From Bacteroidota bacterium (GTDB lineage: Bacteria > Bacteroidota > Bacteroidia > UBA4408), in contig JADKHO010000004.1 in NCBI GenBank assembly GCA_016721765.1, positions 288,088 to 352,087 of the forward strand: 64,000 nt of DNA. Direction: 5' to 3'. This document shows, piece after piece, positions 6,279-55,102 of the stretch. The notes under the pieces were generated by a model. The model ran no database searches, was not told the origin of the DNA, and worked only from the letters and a program-made list of their open reading frames with translations. Within the stretch, counting starts at the first letter, position 1. Each line of letters starts with the position of its first letter. Position numbers and translations under genes: made by a program.

Positions 6279-6854
6279 CTATACAAGAATTTTGAGAATC
6301 GAAAATGTTCCTATTGCAATGTATACAAATGCAAACATTCGCGCCACTTGTATTATGTTTAATTTCAGAAAATTCAAAACTTGGTTTCCCAGAATCATAT
6401 AAGTTAACATTACCAAAAGTGTTCCTAGCGCATTAAAAAAAAGAAAAGGAATAAATTGGGTATAGTTGCTAAGGGGATTAATTGCTATCCCAATCACCAT
6501 CCAAAAAGGAATTTGTTGGGGATGAAAAACAATACTGATCAATCCCCTTTTTAACGTGTTTTTTGAGAATTTTTGCTCCTCCTTTTTATTGTCAAAAAGC
6601 ACCCATACACCCATTACTATCAAGAGAATAAAGGATACAACCTGAAAAACAGAAAAGGTGGATTGATGCTTTTTAAGAGCTTCAATAAAAAGAAGCGTAC
6701 CGCCACAATATAAACTTTCAAACACCAAAATAAGTAACAGCACCCAAAGTAAAGCAACGTATCTTCTGCTTCGGTACAAATCCATAACCATTAGGTTTAT
6801 GTTTCCGGGAAATAAATACCCGTAAAAGCCAATAAATAAAGCTGTGAGCATCAT
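6279..6854 (-). CDS. LysE/RhtB-type small-molecule exporter (putative)
   Basis: 191 aa with about 6 TM segments and an N-terminal PGxN motif (YLFPGNINLMV). Its start overlaps the stop of the upstream ATP-grasp gene. Confidence 0.45.
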   Translation of the reverse strand: MMLTALFIGFYGYLFPGNINLMVMDLYRSRRYVALLWVLLLILVFESLYCGGTLLFIEALKKHQSTFSVFQVVSFILLIVMGVWVLFDNKKEEQKFSKNTLKRGLISIVFHPQQIPFWMVIGIAINPLSNYTQFIPFLFFNALGTLLVMLTYMILGNQVLNFLKLNIIQVARMFAFVYIAIGTFSILKILV

Positions 6855-7885
6855 GTTGTAAAATAGTTGAGTTTATAATTTCGCTCTTCCATTCTCGTGC
6901 TTTTAAAACCTTCGAAACTCATATATTCCACGCCTCTTTCACGGTTTTCTCTTGCGGCATCAAACATCATTTTATAATGCTGTGCAATAACTTTTTGTGC
7001 TTTGAAAAAAGAAAATGAAGGATCGTAAATATGTGCCGGTTCAGCGCCAGCTCCATTCAATTCTAGAATTGAAATGTTTGTCCCATTTCTCAAATCGGCA
7101 AATGACGGGCATCTTAAATCAAAACGCCCAAAATAAAAACCATTAATTGATTTACTTATTTTGTCAAAGCTCTCTGTTAAAGTCGCATCAATAAAATGAT
7201 TGTAATTCACAAACATTGCACCAAGCACATGATTGCCATAAGGTACCAAAACCAATTCTTCGTTGCTTTCTAATATGCAGTTGAAATCAATCTCCGGATT
7301 TTGTTGTAGCCTTTTATATTGTAAGTAAGCCCTGTCATTTTTTAAAATCAATTCACGAACACTGGCTTTACCGTCGCCCACTACAGATAGCAATTTTTTT
7401 AATGTGAGTGAGCTAATAATTCCCTTGCTACTGGATGGATTTCGGTAATAAAAAAGGCTGAATTCCAGCGGGGCATCAACATAAGATTGAATTATGAATT
7501 CTTTTTGGGTTTGATTCCGATACGCTCGAAGTTCAGACTTTGAGTTTAATTTTCGAACTCCCCAGCCTCTCTCTCCTCTATTTGGTTTAGCAATTAAAGG
7601 AAAGTTCATTGCTGCTGATTGAAGGTTTCTTTCAATTTTTTCTACCGTATCATTTTCACACACAAGGAGCGTGGATGGCAAGTATTGCAGGGGAATTAAT
7701 TGGAATATTTTCCACTTACTTTCAAAAAACATTCCGCCCGTTTCAATGGATGGATTAGAAGCGGAGAAAAAGAAAAATGACTTGGCTCTTCCAGCTAAAT
7801 AAAAATAATAAAAGCTAACAGGTAAATAAACAAGCCACATGGGCCAGTATTCCCAACTAAAAAGTTTAATTAAAAATCTTCTCAT
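6851..7885 (-). CDS. ATP-grasp domain protein (putative amino-acid/peptide ligase)
   Basis: Conserved Flavobacteriia-type N-terminus (WEYWPMW..YYFYLA..FFFFSASNPSIETGGM) and a C-terminal ATP-grasp-like region (ILELNGAGAEPAHIYDP). Has ATGA overlaps with both neighbours. Confidence 0.55.
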   Translation of the reverse strand: MRRFLIKLFSWEYWPMWLVYLPVSFYYFYLAGRAKSFFFFSASNPSIETGGMFFESKWKIFQLIPLQYLPSTLLVCENDTVEKIERNLQSAAMNFPLIAKPNRGERGWGVRKLNSKSELRAYRNQTQKEFIIQSYVDAPLEFSLFYYRNPSSSKGIISSLTLKKLLSVVGDGKASVRELILKNDRAYLQYKRLQQNPEIDFNCILESNEELVLVPYGNHVLGAMFVNYNHFIDATLTESFDKISKSINGFYFGRFDLRCPSFADLRNGTNISILELNGAGAEPAHIYDPSFSFFKAQKVIAQHYKMMFDAARENRERGVEYMSFEGFKSTRMEERNYKLNYFTT

Positions 7886-8646
7886 AATAATTTCGTGTTT
7901 GACGGATAATCAGGTGGAAGCGGACAATCTGTGGATTTTGCTAACAGTTTAATTACTTTTTGATGGTGTGTATATTTTTGTAAATCAAAATAATCAAAAG
8001 TTGCAAATTCACTTTGAGGTAACTCAATAAAGGAATAGCTCAATGTTTTCACCTTTTCATTCCGATTCATAATAAATCCATTTTCCATTTCTGGAAAAGA
8101 TTTAAAAAATTTCAACAAAGTCAATTTATCAATGGGCGGTTCCATTGCAATCCAGTTTTGAAAGAGGCTGCTTCGTTTGTCACGAAATTCAGTTGAATAT
8201 AATGTGGAAGAGGACCAAATTTGAGGTATCGTTTTATCAATATGCGTACGTTGTTTCTGAGTTCCATCCCATTGCAATTCAAATAAAGACTCATCACTCC
8301 AAACAACTAAAGTAAAGGGTTCAACTCCTTCAAGATTCATCAAACTCCAGTCAACAATGGGCAAATCAGATGCAAGTAAATCGTTTACAATCAGGCCTCT
8401 GCTTTTAAGGTAATTATCCTTTTGAAGATGCTTTTCTTTCGCACCGTTCAATAAGATGATTACATTTCTGAATTCATTTATTCCTACCCAGGTTCCGCCT
8501 TTTGAAGCATCTTTGGGCGACAATTGATTGATATTATTTGTGCGGTAAATTTCAGGAGCAAGCGCTGCAGGTCTCATCGGACTTTCGTCCCTTAAGGATG
8601 CAAAATGGCGGTTTGATGTTCCTGGTATATATACTACTGTGCACAT
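7882..8646 (-). CDS. NRDE family protein (DUF833, Ntn-hydrolase-like, N-terminal Cys)
   Basis: Begins MCTVVYIPG, typical of the NRDE family. 254 aa. Confidence 0.55.
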   Translation of the reverse strand: MCTVVYIPGTSNRHFASLRDESPMRPAALAPEIYRTNNINQLSPKDASKGGTWVGINEFRNVIILLNGAKEKHLQKDNYLKSRGLIVNDLLASDLPIVDWSLMNLEGVEPFTLVVWSDESLFELQWDGTQKQRTHIDKTIPQIWSSSTLYSTEFRDKRSSLFQNWIAMEPPIDKLTLLKFFKSFPEMENGFIMNRNEKVKTLSYSFIELPQSEFATFDYFDLQKYTHHQKVIKLLAKSTDCPLPPDYPSNTKLL

Positions 8647-8702
8647 TGTATTAATTGTAACGGATGAATTTCACTTGAATAAGCTATTTTAAAATACATT
8701 AT

Positions 8703-9209
8703 TTAGGATGCATTACTTAAAGTTGCTTTATATTTTAAAGTAGAATAAGCCATTCCAAAATCTTCATTCACTATGCTTAACTGCATTTCAACTAAGGCAA
8801 CTTTTATAAGTGCAAGATGATGAATAGTGTGCTCAGTATTGTATACAATTTCTCTAAAATATGTAGTACTTACACCTGTCAGTGCATGCTCTTTTGTTTC
8901 ATCTGTTAGTAAGGTTAGTATTCGGTCAGGGGCTTTCATCGCAGTTATGAGGTTTAGAATTAATGCCTGAGCACTTACTTTCTTGTTTTGTAATTCCAGG
9001 TTTCGCTTTCTGTTTACGTAATCCACAATACCTGTTTCGTTGCCCGCTATGGCACATTCCAGCAATTCGAGAATATGACGTGTATGGCCACCAATGCTTG
9101 CGTTTCCTAAGTGAAGCACTGAATATTGGTATTGCTCATCCGTTAAAGAAGCAAGTAATTCACTTAAGTAATTTAATTGTTGCTCTAGCTGAATAAAAAG
9201 TCTGTTCAT
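8703..9209 (-). CDS. DinB/YfiT-like metal-dependent hydrolase family protein
   Basis: 168 aa with an HTRHILE..H..H pattern characteristic of DinB_2 four-helix bundles. Confidence 0.5.
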   Translation of the reverse strand: MNRLFIQLEQQLNYLSELLASLTDEQYQYSVLHLGNASIGGHTRHILELLECAIAGNETGIVDYVNRKRNLELQNKKVSAQALILNLITAMKAPDRILTLLTDETKEHALTGVSTTYFREIVYNTEHTIHHLALIKVALVEMQLSIVNEDFGMAYSTLKYKATLSNAS

Positions 9210-9245
9210 GAAAATGGTTCTAGATTTGGATATTCTTAACTTTAT

Positions 9246-9647
9246 TTAATTCCGTTTTAACACTTTTTGAAATAATTCAATTCCTTGTTTTCGATGCAAA
9301 ATACAAACACTACTGCAACATAAAAATACCGTGATGGCAAGAACGAATAATTGCCCACCATCTCCTTTCGATTCAATGCCTATGACAGTTAAATGCGAGA
9401 GCATTGCACCTACCATTAATCCAACACCCATTATCGCTCCGATAAAAACAGTTGGGGGAACCAGCAATAAAATACTGCAAGCTAGCTCGAGCACACCTGT
9501 TCCGATGCGTCCCCATGGCTCGACACCTAATTTAGTAAATAGTTGCACCGATTCAGGATGGGCTGAGAATTTAAAATACAAGGTTTGCAATAATATCAGT
9601 GCTGACACAATGCGTAGTATCCAAGAAAGTAGTTGTAATAGTTTCAT
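9246..9647 (-). CDS. DoxX family membrane protein
   Basis: 133 aa with 4 TM segments and a DoxX-like layout (LRIVSALILLQTLYFKFS...). Confidence 0.7.
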   Translation of the reverse strand: MKLLQLLSWILRIVSALILLQTLYFKFSAHPESVQLFTKLGVEPWGRIGTGVLELACSILLLVPPTVFIGAIMGVGLMVGAMLSHLTVIGIESKGDGGQLFVLAITVFLCCSSVCILHRKQGIELFQKVLKRN

Positions 9648-10239: not shown

Positions 10240-10977
10240 CTATCTATACGGATTAAAACTGAATCCAATCATAAGCATCAGTGCTTTATTTCGCCAACGA
10301 TTGTTGTTAAGTCGCAAGCTGTTGTCGGTGGTGTATTCGGTGAATAAAAAAGTTGGACCAAGCTTCACAGCAGTATGGGATGAAACCCAATAGCGAACAA
10401 ACAATTCAGAATTTAGACCACCCAAATCATTGTCGCTTACTAAAAGTAAATTCAACTGAGTGGGTTTAGCCTGCTGCAAACTAGAATTTATGCTGTCTCT
10501 AAAAGAGGTATATAAACCATCAACCGCTTTGCCCAAACCAATTCCAAACGCATCGATATTAAAACCCGCTTCCCATTTTTTTGAAAAGTTGTATTGTAGA
10601 TTAATACTGATGTTTAGCAGATTATTATTTGCACTGCTTACAAAAAAAGTATCCACATTTTCAGTATATATTTTGGTAAATAAAACCTGTAGGCCGGTTT
10701 GCTTTGAGGTCAGAATTGCCGGCGCGGTAACATAATTAATATCCTTGCCCTTTTGGGAAGTAAAGCGCAAACCATATCCGGCTCCAACCTTTTTGTTTTT
10801 TGTAAGAGAATGGATATGTACCCAGGATAATGCGGCGCCATACTGCGAATTTCCTGCAAAAACAGCCAACTCATAGTTATTATTCTTTCGGTACACTTTG
10901 GTTTCAGGTTCTTGCGCACAAACAAAATTTGCAAGCAACAATCCAACAAAATAGAATAAGGCTTTTGAGAGATACAT
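10240..10977 (-). CDS. Putative outer-membrane beta-barrel protein
   Basis: Signal peptide, alternating hydrophobic beta-strand pattern, and a C-terminal aromatic residue (..FSFNPYR). Confidence 0.4.
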   Translation of the reverse strand: MYLSKALFYFVGLLLANFVCAQEPETKVYRKNNNYELAVFAGNSQYGAALSWVHIHSLTKNKKVGAGYGLRFTSQKGKDINYVTAPAILTSKQTGLQVLFTKIYTENVDTFFVSSANNNLLNISINLQYNFSKKWEAGFNIDAFGIGLGKAVDGLYTSFRDSINSSLQQAKPTQLNLLLVSDNDLGGLNSELFVRYWVSSHTAVKLGPTFLFTEYTTDNSLRLNNNRWRNKALMLMIGFSFNPYR

Positions 10978-11062: not shown

Positions 11063-11917
11063 CTAACTTAATTCTTTAGAAGCTTTTTTGACTTCAGAAG
11101 GATTTTGTGAGGTACATTTTTTAAAGAATTTGCTAAAATGTGAGCCATCTTCAAAGCCGAGTTCATCACTTATTTCCTTTACAGATTTTTCGGTGTAATA
11201 AAATAATCTTTTGGCTTCGGTAATAATTCTTTGTTGGATAATTTGAGAAGGGCTCTTTTTGCTGTAAAGCGAAAAATAGTTGGAGATTGTTTTAGGAGAT
11301 TTATGGAGCAAAGAAGCATAAAAAGAAACTTGATGTTCTTTACGGAAATGAATTTCCACAAGTAAGTTGAACTGCCGAATAAGGTTAAATTTCTCTTCCA
11401 CAACCTCTTCCGTACCCAAATATTGCTTCTTTGCTAAACGGGTAATTTGAATGATGAGCCTTACCAAAAGCATCCTTAACATCTCCCCTTTAATTTCTTC
11501 ATCTGAATTATATTCCTCTTCAAACAACTCCAGCAATTTTTTCATTTTTGCTTGTTGTTCCTCGTCCAATGCAACAAACATGGTAGGAGAAGGACCAAAA
11601 AATATAAATCCTACACAACCCACTTCAGCATCGTGATTCACAATACAATAAAACTCTCTATTAAACTGCCAAGCGATAATGCTTTCAGCTTGTTCAAAGC
11701 TAAAAGATTGATTGTGCATAATTGGCAAAATTGAATTGGATTTAAACAAGTACTGAACCTCATCAATAGTAACAACTTGATTGGGGCCTGTATTCCAAGC
11801 AATAGTGTGGGTATTAAAGCCATTTTTTTGCTCGTAGAAGTTTTGATTTAAGTCTGGATTTCCCTTTATCAAAATTAACTTACCTAACCCATCCTTATGC
11901 GTAAAATTGAATTTCAT
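11063..11917 (-). CDS. AraC family transcriptional regulator
   Basis: C-terminal AraC HTH (ISDELGFEDGSHFSKFFKK). Confidence 0.75.
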   Translation of the reverse strand: MKFNFTHKDGLGKLILIKGNPDLNQNFYEQKNGFNTHTIAWNTGPNQVVTIDEVQYLFKSNSILPIMHNQSFSFEQAESIIAWQFNREFYCIVNHDAEVGCVGFIFFGPSPTMFVALDEEQQAKMKKLLELFEEEYNSDEEIKGEMLRMLLVRLIIQITRLAKKQYLGTEEVVEEKFNLIRQFNLLVEIHFRKEHQVSFYASLLHKSPKTISNYFSLYSKKSPSQIIQQRIITEAKRLFYYTEKSVKEISDELGFEDGSHFSKFFKKCTSQNPSEVKKASKELS

Positions 11918-12223
11918 AATCTTTGCTTTTCACAAATATAAAGATTGCAAACGTTAAGCCTTACAAATACGATCTCAAAACTGAGATCAATAAAAGGTGT
12001 GGTTCTTCCATTATTTAGGAGACACCTTCTTTATACATTATTTACTATTAAAGCGGTAGGTAATGCCGAAAAGTTAAATCGTGAAGTAGGAAAGAGCGAG
12101 GCACCATTTTAGTCGCATCGGCTGCAAGGTGCAATTTCACTAAGTTAAATTAGCGTATTTCTAAAAGGGCTATATTTTCTTTATCTCCCATCTTTCTGAT
12201 TCGGAGAATAAAATGCTCCACTT

Positions 12224-12258
12224 ATCCAAAAAAAACAAAACCCCGCTATTAGCGGGGT
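12224..12258 (-). terminator. Terminator downstream of tRNA-Ser (minus strand)
   Basis: Perfect hairpin ccccgct-att-agcgggg, followed on the minus strand by a T-run (A-run on plus). Confidence 0.55.
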
Positions 12259-12270
12259 TACTTGTTAGAG

Positions 12271-12355
12271 CGGAGAAAGAGGGATTCGAACCCCCGGAGG
12301 TATGACCCTCAACAGTTTTCAAGACTGCCGCAATCGACCACTCTGCCATTTCTCC
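12271..12355 (-). tRNA. tRNA-Ser (anticodon TGA)
   Basis: The reverse complement folds as GGAGAAA acceptor stem, GCAGAGTGGTCGA D-arm, CAGT-CTTGAAA-ACTG anticodon arm (TGA), a long variable arm and a GGTTCGAATCC T-loop. Confidence 0.85.
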
Positions 12356-12460
12356 GAGCGCGAAATTATAAAAAAAACTCACGCGCCCTAAAAAAAAATC
12401 AAATTCCCCAATTCTTGGTATTGATAGCCGCTTTATGTAATTTAGCATCAAATTTTTAGC

Positions 12461-13954
12461 ATGAAAAAATATTTTTTTAAGAGCTTACTTTTTTCCCTTT
12501 TTTCGACCTGTGTGATGGCCCAAAACAGCATTGAAGCTTACCTTTCTTATGCTGATTTTACCACTTCCGATAATAAACCTTATCTCGAAACCCATTTAAC
12601 GGTTATCGGAAACAGCATCAATTATCAAAAAAATGAAACCGGAAAATATCAAGCAACCATACTTGTCTCCATAGCTTTTGTGCAAAATGAAAGCATTAAG
12701 AATTTTAAAAAATACAATTTATTGAGCAGTGAGTTTGATAGCAGTAATGGCAACAAACCGAATTTCATTGATCAGCAGCGCTTCTCATTAGAGAATGGGG
12801 AATATGAAATGGAACTTGAAATTTCCGATAAGAATTCAACTCAAGCTCCCTTTAAACACAAAGAAAAAATAAACATTCGATACGATCAGGAAACTGTTCG
12901 GTTTTCAGAAATTGAATTAATTGAATCTGCCACTCCCACCCAAACTCAAAACATATTGAGTAAAAGTGGTTATGATTTAGTTCCCTATGTTTCTAAATAT
13001 TACCCTGCCAATTACAATGTGCTTAATTTCTACGCAGAGCTATATAATATGAATGTGGCCATGAAAGAAAAAGAGAAATTTTTGCTTAGCTATTTTATAC
13101 AAGATTTTGATAGCCACGAAAAATTGAATAATTATTCCAACTTCACTAAAGAAGATGCCTCAGCAGTATCAAGCATCTTAAAGAGTTTTAACATCGAAAA
13201 TTTACCCACCGGAAATTACAATTTATGCTTGGAGGCAAGAGATAGAGAAAATAATTTGTTAGCCGAGCGTAAGTTGTTTTTTCAACGCAATAACCCGCTC
13301 AAAGAAGAGTCGGCTATTCCCGATTTATCTCAAATTGATTTAGAACAAACTTTTTTAAAAAATTACACCAATAAGGATACATTGATTTTGATGTTACTTA
13401 ACCTTCGCCCCATCTCATCGCTGTCCGAAAGAAACTATGCCACGAATCAAATTAAGGCCGGCGATACCGAAATTATGAAAAAGTTTTTTTACTCCTTTTG
13501 GCAAACACGAAATGCAGCTCATCCTTATGAAGAATGGTTGAGATATAAGGAGAAAGTGGATGAGGTAAACCAACTCTTCAGCACCAATAACCGTGATAAA
13601 AATGGATTTAATTCGGATAGAGGAAGAGTGTATTTAAAGTATGGTAAGCCTGATGTTCGTAGTGTTAACGAGCATGAACCCTCCTCCTATCCTTACGAAA
13701 TTTGGCAGTATAATCGCCTTGCATCAGGGCAAACCAACCGTCGCTTTATATTTTATAGTCCCTATGTTGGAACAAATGATTACCGCCTCATCCATTCGGA
13801 TGCACGAGGTGAAGTTTTTGATAGTCGCTGGAGGTATAAAATTGATGAACGCAGTTCACTTCCGGCTACGCAAAAGTATAACCTCGATAATGAGAATATT
13901 AACCGCAACGATTTTGGCCGACAGGTAGATGACTTGTATCGTAACCCGCGTTAA
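12461..13954 (+). CDS. GWxTD domain-containing secreted protein
   Basis: Signal peptide plus a C-terminal region resembling the GWxTD signature (GFNSDRGRVYLKYGKPD..YEIWQY). Confidence 0.55.
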   Translation: MKKYFFKSLLFSLFSTCVMAQNSIEAYLSYADFTTSDNKPYLETHLTVIGNSINYQKNETGKYQATILVSIAFVQNESIKNFKKYNLLSSEFDSSNGNKPNFIDQQRFSLENGEYEMELEISDKNSTQAPFKHKEKINIRYDQETVRFSEIELIESATPTQTQNILSKSGYDLVPYVSKYYPANYNVLNFYAELYNMNVAMKEKEKFLLSYFIQDFDSHEKLNNYSNFTKEDASAVSSILKSFNIENLPTGNYNLCLEARDRENNLLAERKLFFQRNNPLKEESAIPDLSQIDLEQTFLKNYTNKDTLILMLLNLRPISSLSERNYATNQIKAGDTEIMKKFFYSFWQTRNAAHPYEEWLRYKEKVDEVNQLFSTNNRDKNGFNSDRGRVYLKYGKPDVRSVNEHEPSSYPYEIWQYNRLASGQTNRRFIFYSPYVGTNDYRLIHSDARGEVFDSRWRYKIDERSSLPATQKYNLDNENINRNDFGRQVDDLYRNPR

Positions 13955-13989
13955 TTCTAAGCGATAATACTTTCCTCCCCAATAATTTT

Positions 13990-15021
13990 ATGATTAAAAC
14001 AGCTGTTGTTATTTTAAATTGGAACGGCAGAAATTTTCTTGAAAAATTTTTGCCTTCGGTAACACGTTATTCAAAAGGGGACGCAAGTATTTTCATTATA
14101 GATAATGCCTCAAGCGACGACTCTATTTCATTTGTTAAAACGCATTACCCCGAAATTACAATCCTCAAAAATGCACACAATGGTGGTTTTTCCAAAGGCT
14201 ATAATGAAGGATTAAAAAAAATTGATGCCCAGTATTTTGTGCTCTTAAATTCGGATGTGGAGGTGACTGAAAATTGGATAGCCCCTATTGTTCAACTGCT
14301 TGATGAACAACCTGAAATTGCAGCTTGTCAACCTAAAATTAAATCATTTCATCAAAAAAACCAGTTTGAATATGCAGGCGCTGCCGGTGGTTTTTTAGAT
14401 AAGCATTATTATCCTTTTTGCAGGGGTCGTATTTTTGATTCGGTAGAAGAAGACAATGGCCAATACGACAACACTCGTGAGGTGTTTTGGGCTTCTGGCG
14501 CCTGTCTTTTTGTGCGTGCCGATTTATATTCAAAATTAGGCGGATTAGATGAAGATTTTTTTGCCCACATGGAAGAAATAGATTTGTGCTGGCGTTTAAA
14601 AAATACCGGTTATAAAATTATGGCAAGCCACCTTAGCACAGTTTATCATGTTGGTGGAGGAACACTATCAAAAATAAATCCACGCAAAACCTTTCTAAAT
14701 TTTAGAAACAACTTGTTTATCATTACCAAAAACTGTGAACGCAAAAAGCTATTCCCAATGCTATTTAAGCGAATGGTATTGGATGGAATTGCAGCCGGTA
14801 AATTTTTATTCTCAGGAAGTCCATCGCACGCATTTGCTGTTTTAAGAGCCCATTTTAGCTTTTATGCACAGTTTAATGGCATGTACAAAAAACGTAAGTT
14901 AGTTACCCCAATACCTTACACAAGTACTTCAACGCAATACAAAAAAAGCATTATCTGGGACTACTACGTGCGCCAACACAAGCATTTCTCGGAAATTGAT
15001 TCTCGAAATTTTCTCATTTAA
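13990..15021 (+). CDS. Glycosyltransferase family 2
   Basis: N-terminal AVVILNWNG..FLEKFL and DNASSDDS motifs, with a DxD-type core. Confidence 0.85.
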   Translation: MIKTAVVILNWNGRNFLEKFLPSVTRYSKGDASIFIIDNASSDDSISFVKTHYPEITILKNAHNGGFSKGYNEGLKKIDAQYFVLLNSDVEVTENWIAPIVQLLDEQPEIAACQPKIKSFHQKNQFEYAGAAGGFLDKHYYPFCRGRIFDSVEEDNGQYDNTREVFWASGACLFVRADLYSKLGGLDEDFFAHMEEIDLCWRLKNTGYKIMASHLSTVYHVGGGTLSKINPRKTFLNFRNNLFIITKNCERKKLFPMLFKRMVLDGIAAGKFLFSGSPSHAFAVLRAHFSFYAQFNGMYKKRKLVTPIPYTSTSTQYKKSIIWDYYVRQHKHFSEIDSRNFLI

Positions 15022-15107
15022 GCTGTAGAATTTAATCGATATATTAATTTTTCTATATTTACTATTTTATAATTTTTTAAGCAATTGATAAACAGTCATA
15101 CAGGAAC

Positions 15108-16181
15108 GTGCAGTTAAAAGTGCCAATACGAAATTATATCACGCTATTAAAGTTAATTCGGGCCTGTGTCCTTATGCTCTTATGTGTGCCTACTTTTTTG
15201 GTAAATGCACAAAGTGCTGATGTGCTAAAAGCAGATGAATTGTTTGCGCAAAAAAAATACCGTGAAGCTGCAGAAGCTTATCGTTTGTTACTTACACGCG
15301 AAAATGAATATCAGCTGAGTTCAAAAATTGGGAATTGCTATTTGATTTTAGAAGAATATGCGCAAGCAGAGAACTATTATGAAAAAGTGATGCGTTACGG
15401 TCAGCGCAAAGAAATCGAGATTTTCAATTATGCCGAATGCCTAAAGAAAAATTTAAAATTTACCGATGCAAAACGTTGGTACAACGAAGCAGTATTAAAG
15501 GACCCAAAGGATAAAAATGCAAAACGAATGGCAAATTCCTGCCAAATGTTTTTAGACAATATGAAAAGTGGCGCATGCAGTATAATTAGTGCCAATAAGA
15601 ATTGCTTTACCCTTGATGCCTCTTTTTCGGTTGATAATGCAGTCCCTGATTTAGTTTACCAATGGGAATTCGATAACGGCGAAAAACTAGAAGGCCAAGT
15701 TGTAAATTATTGTTTTCCGGGTGCAGGCAAACGACAAATAAAATTAAACACCTACGATAAAACAAAAAATTATTCCTTAAAAACAGATACGGTGCTCTAT
15801 CTTACAATTGATGGAATTCCTATTAGCTTTAAAAATTCTGAGAGCCCTCAAATTAACGACTTAATTAATTTTGATGCTTCCAATTCACTTATTGATGGAG
15901 CTACTATTACCGACTATTTTTGGGATTTTGGAGATGGCAATCTTAGTTTGGGAAAACTAACCGAACATTCATTTAAAGCCAGCGGTACTTATACTATTAA
16001 GCTCACGGTAACTGCACAGTCAATTGATGGTAAGCAAGACATCATTTATTGTGGTTACAAGCGTATTACCGTGGAAGGCGAAAGTTACCAAGAAAAAAGT
16101 TTGTTGGATGTATTAAAGGAAGAAGCAGTTGAACGTGAGAAAGAGAAAAAAACAAAGCCTACAAAAAATCAAAAACGTTAA
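15108..16181 (+). CDS. TPR plus PKD domain secreted protein (true start probably at the Met at 15174)
   Basis: TPR-like N-terminal half and two PKD-like segments (YQWEFDNGE...; FWDFGDGN..GTYTIKLTV). An internal Met begins the likely signal peptide MLLCVPTFLVNAQS. Confidence 0.6.
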   Translation: MQLKVPIRNYITLLKLIRACVLMLLCVPTFLVNAQSADVLKADELFAQKKYREAAEAYRLLLTRENEYQLSSKIGNCYLILEEYAQAENYYEKVMRYGQRKEIEIFNYAECLKKNLKFTDAKRWYNEAVLKDPKDKNAKRMANSCQMFLDNMKSGACSIISANKNCFTLDASFSVDNAVPDLVYQWEFDNGEKLEGQVVNYCFPGAGKRQIKLNTYDKTKNYSLKTDTVLYLTIDGIPISFKNSESPQINDLINFDASNSLIDGATITDYFWDFGDGNLSLGKLTEHSFKASGTYTIKLTVTAQSIDGKQDIIYCGYKRITVEGESYQEKSLLDVLKEEAVEREKEKKTKPTKNQKR

Positions 16182-16193
16182 GTTTTTTACCGT

Positions 16194-17171
16194 ATGATGT
16201 GTATCCGAAAAATAATTTTCCTCTTTTCTTTTTTTACGTTAAGCGTTGTGAATGCTTACGCTCAAGAGGTACCTACAAGAGGAGAAAACCTTAAATGCCT
16301 AATTACATTTGGCAAAAATGGCGACCCTTCATGGGGAGATGACGATTTCAGCCAAACCTTCTTTTTCGTAATTCCGGTGATTCAAAAAATGCCCGTTTAT
16401 ATTCGGGTGTATGATCCTGATGTGTTTGGCGATTTTGATGAATTTAACGGAGAGCCGGATACGAAAGTAAAATTCTCAGTGTATGGCGGAAAAGAAGCTT
16501 ACAGCAACTTGGATGCACGTGCACTTTCACCCAAAGGCAATTACCAAAGTGGCGTAATGTTGGCTTCAAAAGTATTTGGAAATGAGAAAGAATACAATTT
16601 AAAATGGTACACCTTTGGCCCTTTTAATCCCACCGAAGGAGAACTTAGTAATGAACTTGGAGGCTACGTGTTTAAAGTAATTGCTGAAGGTTTAAATGGC
16701 AATGACGGAAACAATTATAAGTACTTTTTAAGTTCAAAGATGAACGATAATAATCCAATTGAAGGCGGAAATGCATTTACGTATGAGTACTCCTTTCGCT
16801 TGCAAGATGAAGTTGGTTCGGTGGCACACATTTATCCGTTTGCGGATAACAATGTAGCGTCCATTAACATCAATAATTTTGATTTTGATAACGATGGATT
16901 TATTAAAATATATTCCATTAAAAAAAACGGTCACGACATTGCCTTTTCCGGGAATAATGTGTGGGCCAAGAGCAATGTAATTATCAGCGAAGCCGAAAAA
17001 AACAAATCGCTGGATGTGCAATTAGTGAAATCGGGAAACGCAATAAACGATATGGTTTTTTATGTAACCAATCAATACAATGTACCGGTACCCTTTTTTA
17101 CCGTGCCTTTGGGAGGAGTCCCAAAATACCAGTATTCCATAAAAATTACGCCTAATGGAGCGCAAAAATAA
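16194..17171 (+). CDS. Secreted hypothetical protein
   Basis: Signal peptide (FLFSFFTLSVVNAYAQ) and no recognisable domain. Overlaps the next gene by 17 nt. Confidence 0.45.
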   Translation: MMCIRKIIFLFSFFTLSVVNAYAQEVPTRGENLKCLITFGKNGDPSWGDDDFSQTFFFVIPVIQKMPVYIRVYDPDVFGDFDEFNGEPDTKVKFSVYGGKEAYSNLDARALSPKGNYQSGVMLASKVFGNEKEYNLKWYTFGPFNPTEGELSNELGGYVFKVIAEGLNGNDGNNYKYFLSSKMNDNNPIEGGNAFTYEYSFRLQDEVGSVAHIYPFADNNVASININNFDFDNDGFIKIYSIKKNGHDIAFSGNNVWAKSNVIISEAEKNKSLDVQLVKSGNAINDMVFYVTNQYNVPVPFFTVPLGGVPKYQYSIKITPNGAQK

Positions 17172-20100
17172 ATTCAGTTACCTGCTGATATTCATTCTTG
17201 TTCCGCTTATTGTTTCTGCTCAAAAATATAGTTTTAAAAACTTTTCCATTGAGCAAGGCTTGCCTCAAGCTTATGTATATAGTATGTTTCAAAATCCGGA
17301 AGGATTCATCACAGTAAGCACAGGGAAAGGTAACGCCCTATTTAACGGTGCTACTTTTAAACCCATTGCAATTCCCAATTTAGCTGCCGAAGATTTTGTA
17401 ACTGCTTCCTTTATTGATCAAGCGGGAAATATATGGTACGGTTGCTTTTCAGGAAATATTTACGCATGTGCCGGAAACAAAGAAACCAAGCTGGTGTATA
17501 AAGCCAGTAGTTTAATTACTCATTTTTGTGAAAACAAGAGCGGGGCGCTGCTAGCTACAACGCGCAGCAACGGATTGCTCCTACTCGATAATACAAAATT
17601 TTCGTGTCAAGAAATTTGTGCAGATTGTAAGGCATACATGCTCAACTCCGCCGAATTTGTAAACCGGCATTTGCTCCTTTTGGGAAGTTCAAATGGATTG
17701 CTGCTTTATTCCTTAACCGATAAAAAGATAATCCCGGCACCACAATTAAACGACTACGAAATTAATTGCATCACACAAGGCTCAATGCAAAATTTATTTT
17801 GGATTGGGACAAAAGAAAAAGGTGTTTTTGAAATTTCGATTGACGAAAATTTAAATTTTAAACTGCTGCACAACATTGCTGTTGAAGAGGGTTTATCGAG
17901 TAATAATGTGCAAAGTATTCTGCTCGATAATTCAAAAAATTTGTGGGTGGGAACGGTTGAAGGGGGTATAAATAAAATTGCTACCAATCAAAATTACAAA
18001 GTGCGCTTTTTTAATGAAGCAGCCGGATTAACTTCAGATTTTGTAAAATCTAGCTTGATTGATAATGAAGGCAACCTTTGGCTGGGAACTTACGGTGGTG
18101 GTCTTTTTCGTTTAGATATTGATCCTTTTGAATTAATTAATGTAAAAGATGGTTTACGCGACAATAACATAACTGCAATTGAATCGGATGCAGCAGGCAA
18201 CTTTTGGTTTGGCACAAATCAAGGCATTACTCAACTGAATTTTGAAAAAAATCAGAGCAAGCAAATTACAGTGGATAAGGGTTTGGTGAGCGATAAAATA
18301 ACGGCACTCTATTTAGATAAAGCAGCACACCGTCTATGGGTTGGAACGGCCGATAAAGGAATATGCACCCTAGAATTAGAGAATGGTAAAATAAATAATT
18401 TTAATCATCAACCTCCACTCGAAGGCGATTACATAAATGCTATCGGGAGCGATAAATTGGGAAACATTTGGATTAGTACAACACTTTCCGGAGCATATAA
18501 ATTCGATGGTGAATTTACCCAATATTCCACAAAAAATGGCTTAGGACACAATTATGTTTATCAGGCTTTTGGCGACTCTAAAGGAAAAGTTTGGTTTGGA
18601 ACACATGCCGGCTCCTTGAATTATTTTGATAAAGGAAAGGTGCAAGAATATAGTAGTAAACTCGGTATCAGTATTTATGACTTTAATTCCTTTTGTGAAG
18701 ATAAAAATGGCAACATCTGGACTGCAACATTTGGAAATGGTTTTGTTAACATTTCTATTTCACCTAAAGTGGTTATCACCACCAATCAAGGCTTGGTTTC
18801 GAATTATTGTTATGGCATTATTTGCGACCGTGATAACAATCTTTGGGTAACTCAAAAAAATTACCTCGCAAAGTTCAACCCCATTCGTCAAAACCTAAAA
18901 ACCTTTAGCAATAAGGATTTATTTGGCGATAATCAATTTAATATCAATGCCACCCATTTAGATAAGGATGGAAATGTGTGGTTGGGAAGCGTGAAAGGAG
19001 CTGTAAAATATTTGTATTCTATCTACAATACCAATAAAACAGAAGCCAAACCAAGTATTACGCATTTCCGCGTATTTAATGAAAACAAAGATCTTACAAC
19101 TTACTTAACCTTACCCTATAGCAGCTATTCCGTTTCGTTTGAATTTGAAGCTTTGAGTTTCAAAAAATCAGAAGAAGTATTATACAAATACATGCTTGCC
19201 GGGCGCGACAACGACTGGTGTATGGCCACCTCCATTAAGTTTGTAAACTATGCAAATTTAGCAGATGGTGAGTATACTTTTAAATTGCTGGCGTGCAACA
19301 ACGATGGATTATGGAACACCGAACCGGTTACCATTTCATTTACAATTAATCCACCCCTTTGGAAAAGTTGGTGGTTTTGGACTGTGTTGTTACTTATTTT
19401 AATAGCCACTGTTGCCATATACGTAAATATTCGCGCCAAACAACTAAAACGCCAGCGCGATGAATTACAGCGCATGGTGGATAATAAAACAAAAGAGCTT
19501 AGCCAAGAAAAAAGCTTAGTGGAATCCCAAAATAAAATTATTCGTGCTAAGAATAAGGATATACAAGACAGTATCAATTATGCTCAAAAAATTCAGGATG
19601 CCATTTTACCGGATATCAATGAGCTACGAAAAAACCTGAGCGATGTATTTATTTTATATCAACCGCGCGAAGTAGTAAGCGGCGATTTTTATTGGTACAC
19701 GCAAGTGGATAATTCGATGATAATGGTGGCTGCCGATTGCACCGGACATGGAGTTCCGGGTGCTTTGATGAGCATGATTGGGAATGCATTGCTACGTGAA
19801 ATTATTTTGTTGAATCAAATTTATAGTCCACATAAAATATTGTATGCATTAGATGAAGGAATTATAAGTACCCTCAACCAGGGCGGTGCGGAGAAAGAGC
19901 GCAAAGACGGGATGGCCATTTCAATTTGTAAAATTATTGCCGATAAAAAACAAATTTCATTTGCGAGTTCACAACAATCCTTAATTCATATTGGTAAAAA
20001 TGGAGCGCGCGAAATTAAGGGTGAATTTTTCTCTATTGGAGATTATGAAGTAACTGATAAAAAATTTGAGAATCATCTTATTCCGTATGAGTCGGAAGAT

Positions 20101-20310
20101 ATGATTTACCTTTTTTCGGATGGGTATCTTGATCAATTTGGTGGCGCGGAAAACCGAAAGTTTATGAAAAAACGCTTTATCGATTTATTGCTCGAAATAT
20201 GCCATTTAGAAGGAAGTTTTCAAAAAGCTGCACTCGAAAAAAATCTTGCTGCCTGGAAAGGCGAGAAAAACCAAACAGATGATGTGATGGTGATTGGGAT
20301 TAGGTTGTAG
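17155..20310 (+). CDS. Transmembrane sensor: two-component-regulator propeller repeats, Y_Y_Y domain, TM helix and a C-terminal PP2C/SpoIIE phosphatase
   Basis: Nine or more Reg_prop-like repeats (NLWVGT.., NFWFGT.., KVWFGT..), a Y_Y_Y motif (YKYMLAGRDNDW..GEYTFKL), a TM helix (WWFWTVLLLILIATVAIYV), a coiled coil and a PP2C-type domain (VVSGDFYW..ADCTGHGVPGALMSM..DDVMVIGIRL). Confidence 0.8.
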   Translation: MERKNKFSYLLIFILVPLIVSAQKYSFKNFSIEQGLPQAYVYSMFQNPEGFITVSTGKGNALFNGATFKPIAIPNLAAEDFVTASFIDQAGNIWYGCFSGNIYACAGNKETKLVYKASSLITHFCENKSGALLATTRSNGLLLLDNTKFSCQEICADCKAYMLNSAEFVNRHLLLLGSSNGLLLYSLTDKKIIPAPQLNDYEINCITQGSMQNLFWIGTKEKGVFEISIDENLNFKLLHNIAVEEGLSSNNVQSILLDNSKNLWVGTVEGGINKIATNQNYKVRFFNEAAGLTSDFVKSSLIDNEGNLWLGTYGGGLFRLDIDPFELINVKDGLRDNNITAIESDAAGNFWFGTNQGITQLNFEKNQSKQITVDKGLVSDKITALYLDKAAHRLWVGTADKGICTLELENGKINNFNHQPPLEGDYINAIGSDKLGNIWISTTLSGAYKFDGEFTQYSTKNGLGHNYVYQAFGDSKGKVWFGTHAGSLNYFDKGKVQEYSSKLGISIYDFNSFCEDKNGNIWTATFGNGFVNISISPKVVITTNQGLVSNYCYGIICDRDNNLWVTQKNYLAKFNPIRQNLKTFSNKDLFGDNQFNINATHLDKDGNVWLGSVKGAVKYLYSIYNTNKTEAKPSITHFRVFNENKDLTTYLTLPYSSYSVSFEFEALSFKKSEEVLYKYMLAGRDNDWCMATSIKFVNYANLADGEYTFKLLACNNDGLWNTEPVTISFTINPPLWKSWWFWTVLLLILIATVAIYVNIRAKQLKRQRDELQRMVDNKTKELSQEKSLVESQNKIIRAKNKDIQDSINYAQKIQDAILPDINELRKNLSDVFILYQPREVVSGDFYWYTQVDNSMIMVAADCTGHGVPGALMSMIGNALLREIILLNQIYSPHKILYALDEGIISTLNQGGAEKERKDGMAISICKIIADKKQISFASSQQSLIHIGKNGAREIKGEFFSIGDYEVTDKKFENHLIPYESEDMIYLFSDGYLDQFGGAENRKFMKKRFIDLLLEICHLEGSFQKAALEKNLAAWKGEKNQTDDVMVIGIRL

Positions 20311-20349
20311 AGCTGATTAGCCGATTAGCTGAATAGCTGATTAGCGGAT
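20311..20349. repeat. Tandem octamer repeat (GATTAGCY)x~4.5 starting at the first nucleotide after the stop codon at 20308-20310
   Basis: Direct reading: agct gattagcc gattagct gaatagct gattagcg gattt. Same family as 773-810. Confidence 0.8.
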
Positions 20350-20487
20350 TTATTGGGAATCTATGCGAACCTATTCCATCTATGTTGCTATGTGTTTATA
20401 AAAGTCAGCTTATGAAATTATATTTTGATTAATAGAACGCAGATTTATTATGATGATTATGATGAATATGATTTTCCGGGAACTGAA

Positions 20488-20907
20488 TTAAATCTTTAAA
20501 AAACTTTCGAGCGCTAATCTATATCCATCCAAACCCAAACCAACAATACAGCCTTTTGCATTGGGAGAAATAAAGGAGGTATGCCTAAAACTTTCGCGGG
20601 CAAAAATATTTGAGATATGCACCTCAATCACCGGCGATTGAATTGCTTTCACAGCATCCCCAATAGCAACAGAAGTGTGCGTGTAGCCACCTGCATTTAA
20701 AATGATTCCATTTGCTGAAAAGCCCACCTCCTGTATTCTATTTATCAACTCGCCTTCTACATTGCTCTGAAAATAATCAATTTGATGTGTCGAAAAGTTG
20801 TTTCGCAATTCCGTTAAATAACTTTCAAAGCTCTGTGTTCCATAAATAGTTTGTTCGCGAGTGCCTAATAAATTTAAGTTAGGACCGTTGATGATGACAA
20901 AATGCAT
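20488..20907 (-). CDS. aroQ: Type II 3-dehydroquinate dehydratase
   Basis: Carries INGPNLNLLGTRE..NAGGYTHTS..HISNI. The ORF track extends 16 codons upstream, but the conserved start is MHFVIINGPN at 20907. Confidence 0.9.
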   Translation of the reverse strand: MHFVIINGPNLNLLGTREQTIYGTQSFESYLTELRNNFSTHQIDYFQSNVEGELINRIQEVGFSANGIILNAGGYTHTSVAIGDAVKAIQSPVIEVHISNIFARESFRHTSFISPNAKGCIVGLGLDGYRLALESFLKI

Positions 20908-21001
20908 AGCTTTGAGTTTTGGATAATTTAGACAATAATAAAAAAGAAATCTCATTTTCTCCCTTTTTCACTGCTAAAGTGACTAAAGTTTAGCACGTAT
21001 C

Positions 21002-21910
21002 ATGAACTGGAAAATTTATATCAAAGGTTACTCCTCTTATCTGAAATTGGAACGCTCACTTTCCGAAAATTCGATTGAAGCCTATGAGCACGATGTGGAA
21101 AAATTTGTTCAGTTCTTGGAATTTAAAAAAATGGAGTTATCACCCAAACAAGTTGAGCTGAGCCATTTGCGTGAATTTTTGATTTGGACCAATGAATTGG
21201 GAATGAGTGCACGCACGCAAGCTAGGGTAATTTCAGGCATAAAATCGTTTTATAAATACTTGTTGGTTGAAAATATTTTGGATTCCGACCCAACCACTTT
21301 ACTAGAAGCACCCCGATTGGGCAGAAAGCTACCGGAAGTGCTTAGCATTGAAGAAATAAATGCACTCATTGATGGAATTGATTTAAGCAAAAATGAAGGT
21401 ACACGCAACAAAGCCATGCTCGAAACCCTTTACAGCTCAGGATTGCGGGTAAGTGAATTGGTAAATCTTAAAATTTCGACCGTTTTTCCAAGGGAAGGAT
21501 TTTTAAAAGTGATTGGAAAAGGAAATAAGGAACGCATTGTTCCCATTGGTAAGGTTGCCTTAAAGCAAATCGATATTTATCTCACGAAAGTGAGAAGCAA
21601 AGTAACACCGGCCAAAGAAGACGGAGACACACTGTTTTTAAATAACCGCGGTAAAAAACTCACACGTGTGATGGTTTTTACCATAATTAAACGTCTTGCC
21701 ATCCAAATTAATTTGGGCAAAAATATAAGTCCGCATACATTCCGCCACTCGTTTGCAACCCATTTAATTGATGGAGGAGCCGATTTGAGGGCGGTGCAAG
21801 ATATGCTCGGCCATGAAAGTATTACTACTACCGAAATTTATACCCATCTAGACCGAGAATATTTACGCGATGCAATTATGCAATTTCACCCTAGAGCTAA
21901 AATGCATTGA
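21002..21910 (+). CDS. xerD: Site-specific tyrosine recombinase XerD
   Basis: Has the catalytic RxxxHxxR..Y arrangement (HTFRHSFATHL..LGHESITTTEIYTHL). Shows the chromosomal aroQ-xerD synteny and no flanking phage genes. Confidence 0.85.
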   Translation: MNWKIYIKGYSSYLKLERSLSENSIEAYEHDVEKFVQFLEFKKMELSPKQVELSHLREFLIWTNELGMSARTQARVISGIKSFYKYLLVENILDSDPTTLLEAPRLGRKLPEVLSIEEINALIDGIDLSKNEGTRNKAMLETLYSSGLRVSELVNLKISTVFPREGFLKVIGKGNKERIVPIGKVALKQIDIYLTKVRSKVTPAKEDGDTLFLNNRGKKLTRVMVFTIIKRLAIQINLGKNISPHTFRHSFATHLIDGGADLRAVQDMLGHESITTTEIYTHLDREYLRDAIMQFHPRAKMH

Positions 21911-33100: not shown

Positions 33101-33397
33101 CAATTTGCTTGTGCAGATACGGATTGTGTATATATAACTGTAAACGGATTAGGATTAAATTCCATGAATGAAGAAGTCCTGCAAACACTCTTTCCAAATC
33201 CTGCCAGTGATTTTGTGTTGCTAAGTTCTTCTTCCGCAAAAAACGAAAAAATTGAAATTTATAGTGCTCAAGGTGCATTAGTTTATCGCTCACATTTCAC
33301 TGCTCAAATTCGTATCGAAACCAATAATTGGGCTGAAGGAATTTATTTGGTGAAAAATGGGGAGCATAATTTTAGGAAATTGGTGATTCAGCGATAG
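30155..33397 (+). CDS. T9SS cargo: CotH kinase-family domain, lamin-tail domain, PKD and cysteine-containing repeat domains, and a C-terminal T9SS sorting domain
   Basis: CotH-like N-terminus (YNGVTYDSVGVRFKGNSSYEN..KKSFNISL), LTD (IVINEIMARNN..YEDWIELYNNSNQAVDISGYYLTD), PKD motifs (WDFGDNSP.., WDFGDASP..), repeated SY.WNTG...NYCVVV modules, and a terminal LFPNPASDFVLL...IYLVK sorting domain. Confidence 0.75.
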   Translation: MTKIISTLFLVFYLSISGIAQKLPRQMQLSSDGRMLTTGQKANNSFYNQNSIPILYLNFSDTANFWQDMILYHDSLKDYPATLIYNGVTYDSVGVRFKGNSSYENIGNSLKKSFNISLNAFIEGQGINGYNTLNLNNCYDDPSFMREVFFENQIKQHIPAAQTNFAHLYINGADWGLYANVQQLNRDFQKEWFMSDEGANFRASRPPGSTGSGSVIKASFLNLGQDTAEYQKFYTLKSSETIDPWTKLKDFCTALDTIAPARKVAALSQYLDIDRALWFLASEIAFNDFDSYIEKGKNDFYVYYEKETGRFAPLEFDGNDVMDTHYVNAVSALRHTTDTLFPLMSKIIGVPEIRQRYLAHMRTLVADEQDTTSAFPWIDNAFSMIDSIVFADTIKLYSYAAFQNSPGILKYYLRNRRLKMLNNSEVDNVGPIITDVRLYSDSLLWKQPEANHAVQIRAQINSGNGISKVILHSATGLVGNFNKTQMFDDGLHNDSLAGDGIYAATLVGQSGGTWVRYYVEAASNNTAKTVSFEPPGAEHNIFIYLVKPAIAADSTSIVINEIMARNNTTVTDSAGQYEDWIELYNNSNQAVDISGYYLTDNEFNLTKWQIPQGTILNANEYLIIWADEDGAQGNLHANFKFSANGETLIILNAQGELVNKISFGPQSPDISYARIPNGNGPFAAQFPTFGINNNPKPQVGFFTSITNGCGTANVSFFNTSVNASDYVWDFGDNSPTSTAVNPTHIYTSPGNFTVTLQANGGGWTVIDSLPNSVQVNPLPVFDFGVDTIYAPSVNYLLEAGNGFTSYSWNTGDLTQGILLSTSGNYCVVVGDVNGCTDTACVYLKFPLALPQASYTANNTQGCAALYVSFTNTSINGVNYIWDFGDASPISTDENPEHAFNGAGIYNVSLSAINAIDTSVFISSISVFPNPVFSFASDTIHAPNATLLLDAGTGFTSYAWNTGEITQAITVDSNANYCVVVMNQFACADTDCVYITVNGLGLNSMNEEVLQTLFPNPASDFVLLSSSSAKNEKIEIYSAQGALVYRSHFTAQIRIETNNWAEGIYLVKNGEHNFRKLVIQR

Positions 33398-54927: not shown

Positions 54928-55102
54928 GACGTAACTGATTCTAAACTGGCGATTAAAATATTGGAATGATGTTGCTAAAATTAGCAATAAATCAACTCAT
55001 GACATGCAGCTCAGCTATTTTTAGTTGTTCATTTTAAATTTAAATACGTCCAATCAGAATCATGAAATCTTTCCCAAACAATCCTATATTTGAAAAAACA
55101 AA

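Follow-up and report, generated by a model that had tools for sequence, protein, structure and literature searches.

We analyzed a 64,000-nucleotide stretch of DNA from a Bacteroidota bacterium (contig JADKHO010000004.1, positions 288,088 to 352,087 of the forward strand; hereafter the window) and found that the gene at 17155..20310 on its + strand encodes a single-pass inner-membrane sensor phosphatase with a cleavable signal peptide. We class this protein (hereafter the sensor) as a SiaA-type partner-switch phosphatase that carries a periplasmic sensor of the type known from hybrid two-component systems (HTCS). The closest characterized relative of its PP2C output domain is SiaA, a phosphatase that regulates biofilms in Pseudomonas aeruginosa, and the partners of the phosphatase are probably of the SiaB (DUF6272, PF19788) and SiaC (PF09345) type, not the classical RsbV-STAS/RsbW type. 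The gene is an ATG-initiated open reading frame (ORF) of 1051 aa plus a stop codon, and its product is identical to MBL0049469.1, a protein from a Bacteroidetes metagenome-assembled genome (MAG) that was deposited under the name 'SpoIIE family protein phosphatase'. It is near certain that the protein is composed, in this order, of a signal peptide, tandem Reg_prop beta-propellers, a Y_Y_Y domain, one transmembrane helix, a helical linker, and a PP2C/SpoIIE domain, which map to the window as follows:

17155..20310 (+), sensor phosphatase gene (ORF, Pfam, identity to MBL0049469.1)
17155..17220 (+), signal peptide, aa 1-22, core 7-27, ending in ...VSAQ (hydropathy; N-terminal helix in the model)
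17221..19029 (+), periplasmic tandem beta-propellers, Reg_prop, aa ~23-625 (Pfam, PDB sequence, Foldseek)
19048..19347 (+), membrane-proximal Y_Y_Y Ig-like domain, aa 632-731 (Pfam; beta-sandwich in the model)
19357..19440 (+), the one transmembrane helix, aa 735-762, its cytoplasmic flank positively charged (hydropathy; model helix 739-781)
19441..19635 (+), cytoplasmic linker made up of two long helices, aa 763-827 (model; aligns with the SiaA pre-PP2C helix in 6K4E)
19645..20307 (+), PP2C/PPM domain, SiaA type, aa 831-1051 (Pfam, NCBIfam, PDB sequence, alignment, Foldseek)

A Pfam domain scan of the sensor found Reg_prop in 8 separate stretches (E 5.3e-39), Y_Y_Y at aa 669-731 (E 2.5e-14), and SpoIIE (PF07228) at aa 853-1050 (E 1.3e-12), the latter scoring 48.5 bits and thus above the Pfam gathering cut-off of 25. 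The same scan found no HisKA, HATPase_c, or REC domain in the protein down to E <= 1. Hydropathy analysis revealed just two hydrophobic segments, the signal peptide (7-27) and the transmembrane helix (735-762), and the basic stretch RAKQLKRQR lies directly after this helix, which together place residues ~23-734 in the periplasm and residues 763-1051 in the cytoplasm. An AlphaFold2 monomer model computed from 20 homologues (pLDDT 82, with low confidence at linker residues 777-794) contains four-stranded blades over ~600 residues, an Ig-like domain at residues 632-731, and an alpha/beta PP2C fold, as well as a long helix (739-781) and a second helix (786-817). The periplasmic part of this model superposes on the BT4663 domain (4A2L/4A2M; Foldseek E 1e-49, target-normalised TM-score 0.65-0.70), and the same part matches 4A2L (5e-59) and 3V9F (1e-43) by sequence. 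These results bear out a first-pass annotation, made from the letters of the DNA, which had proposed a protein of Reg_prop, Y_Y_Y, and SpoIIE domains that holds no kinase domain. By analogy with RsbU/RsbP-type phosphatases (PMC12143880), the linker is presumed to be a dimeric coiled coil.

The type of the PP2C domain was evident from both sequence and structure comparisons. Specifically, the C-terminal 290 aa of the sensor align with positions 375-656 of the 658 positions of the NCBIfam SiaA model (NF038263; E 4.9e-55), and the PP2C domain of SiaA (6K4E) is the sole strong PDB sequence match (E 4.5e-37). The next PP2C-type PDB chains are RssB-like response regulators (e.g. 3EQ2, E 2e-3), and no RsbU, RsbX, or SpoIIE chain was found among the PDB sequence matches of this domain at E <= 0.01. 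Foldseek places the modeled PP2C domain on 6K4E with a TM-score of 0.90-0.91, an rmsd of 2.2 A, and 34% identity, and the metal-binding residues of the two proteins are aligned. The metal-binding and catalytic residues D844 (within SGDFYW), D861 and G864-H865-G866 (both within DCTGHGVPGA), D918, D989, D993, D1042, and D1043 are invariant across the 20 homologues, which share ~30% identity. The domain should thus be catalytically intact, and we predict an active enzyme and not an adaptor.

To place these findings in context, the SiaABCD switch works through the kinase SiaB, which phosphorylates SiaC at Thr68, and SiaA, which takes the phosphate off again; unphosphorylated SiaC activates the diguanylate cyclase SiaD, and the switch controls no sigma factor (PMC7647112). 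Because the target of this switch is a diguanylate cyclase, the term 'anti-sigma' need not apply to the partners of the sensor. Among the relatives of the sensor, we found a 1540-aa protein (P0063) that has the same architecture and in addition carries two tandem SiaB-like DUF6272 domains at its C-terminus (E 2.6e-62). A SiaC gene follows 4 nt downstream, an arrangement present in three independent assemblies (loci are given by their L numbers here and below):

L001 8001-12623, P0063 fusion
L001 12628-13014, SiaC (PF09345) gene

A second Reg_prop-PP2C gene is located 5 kb upstream of P0063 on the opposite strand.

We then examined the surroundings of the sensor's relatives more generally, using as genome loci the best 80 of at least 599 relatives identified in a pattern scan with one genome per species. 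Iterative hidden Markov model (HMM) searches detected SiaC-like genes in 9 out of 80 and SiaB-like genes in 7 out of 80 of these loci. Four loci (L041, L082, L070, and L022) have the operon sensor - unk286 - SiaB - SiaC in common, and in another (L020, from the subgroup that carries the upstream gene unk325 described below) a SiaC gene starts 26 nt after the sensor. Moreover, in a census of 92 neighboring genes of 85-215 aa within 2.6 kb of 73 relatives, with Pfam families listed down to two members, SiaC (6) and DUF6272 (4) were the only recurring signaling families; neither STAS nor HATPase_c_2 was among the recurring families. Together, the SiaA-like PP2C domain, the P0063 fusion, and the recurring SiaC and SiaB neighbors suggest that the sensor likely works with partners of the SiaB/SiaC type. 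The first-pass annotation had deduced a partner-switching output that acts through a STAS anti-anti-sigma factor and an anti-sigma kinase. Partner switching is still the most plausible mode of signaling, whereas for the identity of the partners the PP2C type, P0063, and the census favor SiaB and SiaC over STAS and RsbW.

The protein encoded between sensor and SiaB in these four operons, unk286, is ~280 aa long and without a Pfam family. It always occupies this position and is a candidate fourth component or effector of the sensor-SiaB-SiaC operons:

L041 13354-14214, unk286
L082 7620-8477, unk286
L070 13233-14045, unk286
L022 13484-14314, unk286

The sensor gene closes a conserved envelope module that consists of a PorE-like TPR/PKD protein, a protein that we call unk325, and the sensor itself. 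In the window, these three genes are preceded by two others, which gives the following block upstream of the sensor:

12461..13954 (+), GWxTD-domain protein that opens the block, specific to this clade (domain search)
13990..15021 (+), family-2 glycosyltransferase (GT2), in the syntenic block solely in close orthologues (sensors 72-73% identical)
15108..16181 (+), TPR + PKD protein similar to PorE's N-terminal part (domain searches)
16194..17171 (+), unk325, exported, with predicted tandem beta-sandwich/jelly-roll domains (AlphaFold2 model; MBL0049468.1)

The unk325 gene overlaps the start of the sensor gene by 17 nt, and both this overlap and the five-gene order GWxTD - GT2 - TPR/PKD - unk325 - sensor are kept in orthologues with differing upstream flanks. 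In NCBIfam, the TPR/PKD protein has a match to PorE over the latter's N-terminal TPR part (E 9.5e-12). A scan of positions 11900-21050 found no convincing + strand terminator within the gene block; a sigma-70 promoter scan of the same region, which does not cover Bacteroidota promoters, returned 34 promoter-like sites versus 30.9 expected. The GWxTD protein (12461-13954, +) has a sub-threshold Y_Y_Y match at aa 237-265 (E 1.4e-4). Beyond the sensor, an 8-nt tandem repeat (AGCTGATT, 5 copies, 84% matches) at 20311-20350 begins one base past the stop codon, and the same intergenic region, ahead of aroQ, contains another short repeat (ATTATGATG, 2.9 copies) at 20447-20472.

The unk325 protein has 325 aa including a signal peptide, is identical to MBL0049468.1 (IPP32_15385), and has no family in NCBIfam or in the copy of Pfam that was searched. 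Its own family comprises 3,414 clusters, all named 'hypothetical protein', and is 52-61% identical across Sphingobacteriaceae, Cytophagaceae, Chitinophagaceae, and others, so that it is far better conserved than the sensor. The AlphaFold2 model (pLDDT 89, pTM 0.85) contains two beta-sandwich/jelly-roll domains, for which Foldseek returned generic tandem beta-sandwiches from the PDB (SIDT ectodomain, tandem CBM22, CUB, and ColG collagen-binding; TM-score ~0.2). These generic matches point to no specific function.

Across Bacteroidota, a homologue of unk325 is found directly upstream of such sensors, namely in all close orthologues, in L004-L006, and in 16 out of 80 distant genome loci, whose sensors share ~30% identity with that of the window. 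In these distant loci, unk325 is usually preceded by a TPR/PD40/PKD protein; the counterparts of the window's TPR/PKD gene in related loci are longer and have PD40 and sometimes OmpA domains. For the reciprocal census we started from unk325 and collected 80 metagenome loci plus two genome loci. On contigs with room for it, the next gene on the same strand was a Reg_prop/Y_Y_Y sensor, as it is in the window, except at L120, where unk325 is followed by three smaller genes and no sensor, and at L097, where it is followed by a 1114-aa ORF without a Pfam family. At the other end of the module, the distant subgroup has a conserved gene of ~170 aa that runs antisense to the sensor and directly adjoins its 3' end (L035 13136-13657 (-), L013, L018, L021, and L048). 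Six small neighboring genes in the census match the LOG-type 'Lysine_decarbox'/SLOG families and may be the same genes as this antisense neighbor, of which the L035 copy has no Pfam match.

We observed that the output of the sensor is exchangeable within this module. Where the C-terminus could be read, the unk325-associated sensors end in PP2C in 41 loci (with L149 in addition by Pfam) and in HisKA/HATPase in 4 (L088, L106, L111, and L148, the last of which is a hybrid kinase with a receiver). PP2C is thus the rule and the histidine kinase the exception in the unk325 sensor lineage. In L088, which is part of a complete Cytophagaceae genome (Cytophagaceae bacterium ABcell3, CP133159.1), the order is PorP/SprF - PD40/PKD/OmpA - unk325 - Reg_prop/Y_Y_Y/HisKA/HATPase. 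When we compared the periplasmic domains of the kinase versions with those of other sensors, their nearest relatives were the unk325-associated PP2C sensors and not other PP2C sensors; specifically, the median identity was 27% within the module versus 24-25% outside it, and all top matches that were not histidine kinases came from the module. These findings indicate that the transmitter was exchanged within one sensor lineage. Control through a coiled-coil linker and modular exchange among PPM phosphatases and histidine kinases as well as GGDEF proteins have been proposed (PMC12143880), and the exchange of PP2C and histidine kinase in the unk325 lineage is the situation that Baral et al. proposed in general terms. 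The module also occurs with a PAS+PP2C output (L101), with a TPR-PP2C protein (L109), and without an output (L121 and L124). In L109, the gene after unk325 (6936-9362) encodes an 808-aa TPR-repeat protein with a SpoIIE/PP2C output in place of the Reg_prop sensor, and here it is the input that has been swapped.

The architecture itself is widespread. In a search of 5.8 billion proteins, we found 5,258 significant matches to the sensor among the 8,000 candidates scored, and the best 120 all combine Reg_prop, Y_Y_Y, and SpoIIE in ~1040-1240 aa, apart from a few longer ones with extra PAS or DUF6272 domains. Databases name these homologues 'SpoIIE family protein phosphatase', 'two-component regulator propeller domain-containing protein', or, in the JGI annotation, 'ligand-binding sensor domain-containing protein/serine phosphatase RsbU'. 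The best 80 relatives are nearly all titled Bacteroidota and are mostly MAGs, in addition to isolates, among them Labilibacter sediminis CG51 (L074) and Flammeovirga sp. EKP202 (L077); two MAG titles name Gammaproteobacteria (Hydrocarboniphaga, L039, and Candidatus Marithrix, L075). The two named isolates have the PP2C version of the sensor, and no unk325 gene was detected upstream of it. We found no publications on the combination of Reg_prop and SpoIIE, on DUF1987/PP2C in Bacteroidetes, or on SpoIIE with gliding or partner switching. The Reg_prop-PP2C family is therefore catalogued, common in Bacteroidota, and experimentally uncharacterized, and the bare architecture will be no surprise to a specialist. 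The suggestion of the first-pass annotation that a phosphatase is an unusual output for such a sensor does not agree with these numbers, given more than 5,258 matches, at least 599 relatives, and 41 PP2C versus 4 histidine kinase outputs in the module. On a Vicingaceae chromosome, a cytoplasmic PAS-PAS-SpoIIE phosphatase (L012 13292-14875) lies directly downstream of a Reg_prop-PP2C sensor, and a second Reg_prop-PP2C paralogue (L038) is present on the same chromosome. This arrangement suggests that a single switch may receive input from several phosphatases.

In the distant subgroup, the module is found in a type IX secretion system (T9SS) context. The block there reads histidine kinase - large CHU_C protein (type-B T9SS C-terminal domain) - PorP/SprF - TPR/PD40/PKD - unk325 - sensor. 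PorP/SprF is located on the same strand and <=3.5 kb upstream in 41 out of 72 unk325 loci with enough sequence, and it occurs in 13 out of 16 genome loci that have unk325 versus 2 out of 64 that lack it. It is known that genes for type-B cargo, PorP-like, and PorE-like proteins lie in clusters, and the encoded proteins are believed to attach cargo to the cell surface and wall (PMC9143113). In most distant relatives, the unk325-sensor pair comes after such a series of CHU_C cargo, PorP/SprF, and PorE-like TPR/PD40/PKD(/OmpA) genes; the published triads are not described with a sensor downstream. The window yielded no PorP match, and neither a PorP/SprF gene nor a type-B cargo gene lies upstream of its sensor, where the clade has GWxTD and GT2 instead. 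In this clade the cargo and PorP genes have been lost, and a short TPR/PKD protein is what remains. Elsewhere, the window encodes three proteins with Por_Secre_tail domains that are predicted to be T9SS type-A cargo:

30155-33397 (+), CotH/LTD/PKD protein, 1080 aa, Por_Secre_tail
40180-42585 (+), five-fn3 protein, 801 aa, Por_Secre_tail
57473-58786 (+), GH18 chitinase, Por_Secre_tail

The window further contains a small class III adenylate/guanylate cyclase gene (44354-45109, -; Guanylate_cyc E 1e-55) directly downstream of a TPR protein gene (45125-46144, -). This nucleotide-cyclase signaling gene is 24 kb from the sensor. Four ORFs have no Pfam family, namely 1542-3068 (-), 59883-61445 (-), 10240-10977 (-), and 6279-6854 (-), of 507, 519, 244, and 190 aa, respectively.

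Comparison with characterized systems shows which parts of the sensor have precedents. SiaA (6K4E) shares with it the membrane anchoring, a helical linker ahead of PP2C, and the PP2C domain (34% identical, TM-score 0.9). However, SiaA has two transmembrane segments and a HAMP domain, while the sensor has a 710-aa periplasmic propeller/Y_Y_Y part and one transmembrane segment; and the siaB, siaC, and siaD operon partners of SiaA have no counterpart beside the sensor, with SiaB/SiaC located beside ~10% of its more distant relatives. The HTCS proteins BT4663 (4A2L/4A2M) and BT3049 (3V9F) have the signal peptide, tandem Reg_prop propellers, Y_Y_Y domain, and single transmembrane helix in common with the sensor. 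The cytoplasmic part of Bacteroides HTCS proteins is HisKA-HATPase-REC-AraC, whereas that of the sensor is PP2C, so it is not an HTCS protein; in addition, the context of the sensor is an envelope/T9SS-type module and not a polysaccharide utilization locus (PUL). BguR, a one-component regulator from marine Bacteroidota (Reg_prop/Y_Y_Y-TM-GerE), is another recent example of output exchange for this type of periplasmic sensor and resembles our protein in that one transmembrane helix leads to a non-kinase output (bioRxiv 10.64898/2026.01.10.698779). BguR, however, ends in a DNA-binding domain, which acts on a PUL promoter directly, and the output of the sensor is an enzyme in need of protein partners. 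Finally, the RsbU/RsbP-type PPM phosphatases are, like the sensor, controlled through an N-terminal helical linker (PMC12143880). They are cytoplasmic and act on STAS proteins, whereas the sensor is a transmembrane, SiaA-like protein without a PDB sequence match to the RsbU/RsbP type.

We propose the following mechanism, in which a periplasmic sensor acts through PP2C on a SiaC-like switch and which we consider, as a whole chain, a reasonably probable account. A periplasmic cue would act on the propeller/Y_Y_Y part; candidates for this cue are a glycan, by analogy with HTCS sensors, and the state of a complex for surface anchoring. The unk325 and TPR/PKD proteins may present or modulate the signal as co-sensors, although for unk325 this role is much less certain. 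The signal would shift the packing of the dimeric transmembrane and linker helices and thereby turn PP2C on or off, as in histidine kinases and as has been proposed for RsbU-type phosphatases. Once active, the phosphatase would remove the threonine phosphate that a SiaB-like kinase maintains on a SiaC-like protein, and free SiaC could then bind an effector. A more far-reaching version of this proposal, which we regard as speculative and doubtful, is that the TPR/PKD protein, unk325, and the sensor form an envelope-surveillance device for T9SS type-B cargo and PorP-PorE anchoring (or for a surface glycan) that reports through a SiaB/SiaC-type threonine switch, with the PP2C and histidine kinase versions as interchangeable transmitters.

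Several observations weigh against a SiaA-type switch that is linked to the envelope module. The full NF038263 score of the sensor is 187 bits, far under the equivalog cut-off of 700, so the protein is not a SiaA equivalog; the low total is due to the N-terminal two-thirds, the sensor part, which is unrelated to SiaA. No SiaB, SiaC, STAS, or RsbW was found among the ~60 ORFs of the 64-kb window, of which essentially every one of >=90 aa was searched with Pfam, NCBIfam, or PDB sequences, and profiles of SiaB, SiaC, and unk286 against the stop-to-stop six-frame translation gave a best E of 0.14. The statement of the first-pass annotation that a partner pair is not encoded in the window thus holds. 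One 441-aa ORF (53659-54987, -), for which PDB sequences were the sole check, had no match there and is an unlikely STAS or RsbW candidate. Likewise, the close orthologues (L004 and L005; 72-73% identity) have no SiaB, SiaC, STAS, or RsbW neighbors, and a SiaB/SiaC pair would have to be encoded elsewhere in the genome. Beside the Bacteroidota SiaB/SiaC operons examined, there is no GGDEF protein, SiaD-like diguanylate cyclase, or obvious effector, and the genes downstream have housekeeping roles (class I aldolase, accD, sucD, and citrate synthase). The substrate assigned to the sensor is thus a prediction from homology and from ~10% of its relatives, and what ties unk325 and the TPR/PKD protein to the sensor is conserved gene order.

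Three rival explanations were weighed. The absence of partner genes near the sensor and its close orthologues would be expected if the phosphatase acted on a substrate directly, without a switch, such as the target of a Hanks-type Ser/Thr kinase or a cytoplasmic or membrane enzyme from the co-transcribed envelope/polysaccharide genes like GT2, and so tuned surface-polymer synthesis or T9SS type-B cargo anchoring at the post-translational level; the conserved operon linkage to envelope proteins, in this clade GT2 and GWxTD, is in line with this. Yet the linkage to GT2 and GWxTD is confined to the close clade, we found no positive evidence for any such substrate, and the PP2C domain is of the SiaA subtype, for which SiaC is the sole known substrate (PMC7647112), all of which makes direct action improbable. 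We similarly consider it unlikely that the sensor operates an RsbU-like switch, in which the phosphatase would free a STAS anti-anti-sigma factor that captures an RsbW-type kinase and thereby releases a sigma factor, with the partners encoded elsewhere. Such a switch would fit the Pfam SpoIIE/PP2C family of the output, the JGI label 'serine phosphatase RsbU' of its homologues, and the wide distribution of partner switches with diverse phosphatase sensor domains (PMC12143880). The finer evidence points the other way, since the PDB matches at E <= 0.01 are confined to SiaA and the RssB-like PP2Cs, SiaC and SiaB recur in the neighbor census where STAS and HATPase_c_2 do not, and the kinase fused in P0063 is SiaB-type and not RsbW-type. 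The weak match to the RssB-like PP2C could also hint at a role as adaptor or scaffold without catalysis, like that of E. coli RssB. With the metal-binding Asp residues and GHG invariant at ~30% identity and a fold that matches the active SiaA PP2C at an rmsd of 2.2 A, this is very improbable, and we rejected a pseudo-phosphatase on the grounds of the invariant catalytic residues.

In summary, our findings tie a large and experimentally untouched family of Bacteroidota sensors to SiaA/SiaB/SiaC signaling chemistry. They also give context to the unk325 family as the constant companion of these sensors, often within T9SS type-B cargo clusters. What is new here is the SiaB/SiaC assignment, the conserved companion unk325 and its setting among T9SS type-B genes, and the natural swap of PP2C and histidine kinase transmitters. 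With one input module that carries either a PP2C or a histidine kinase transmitter, this lineage offers a natural test case for modular exchange through a shared helical linker (PMC12143880).

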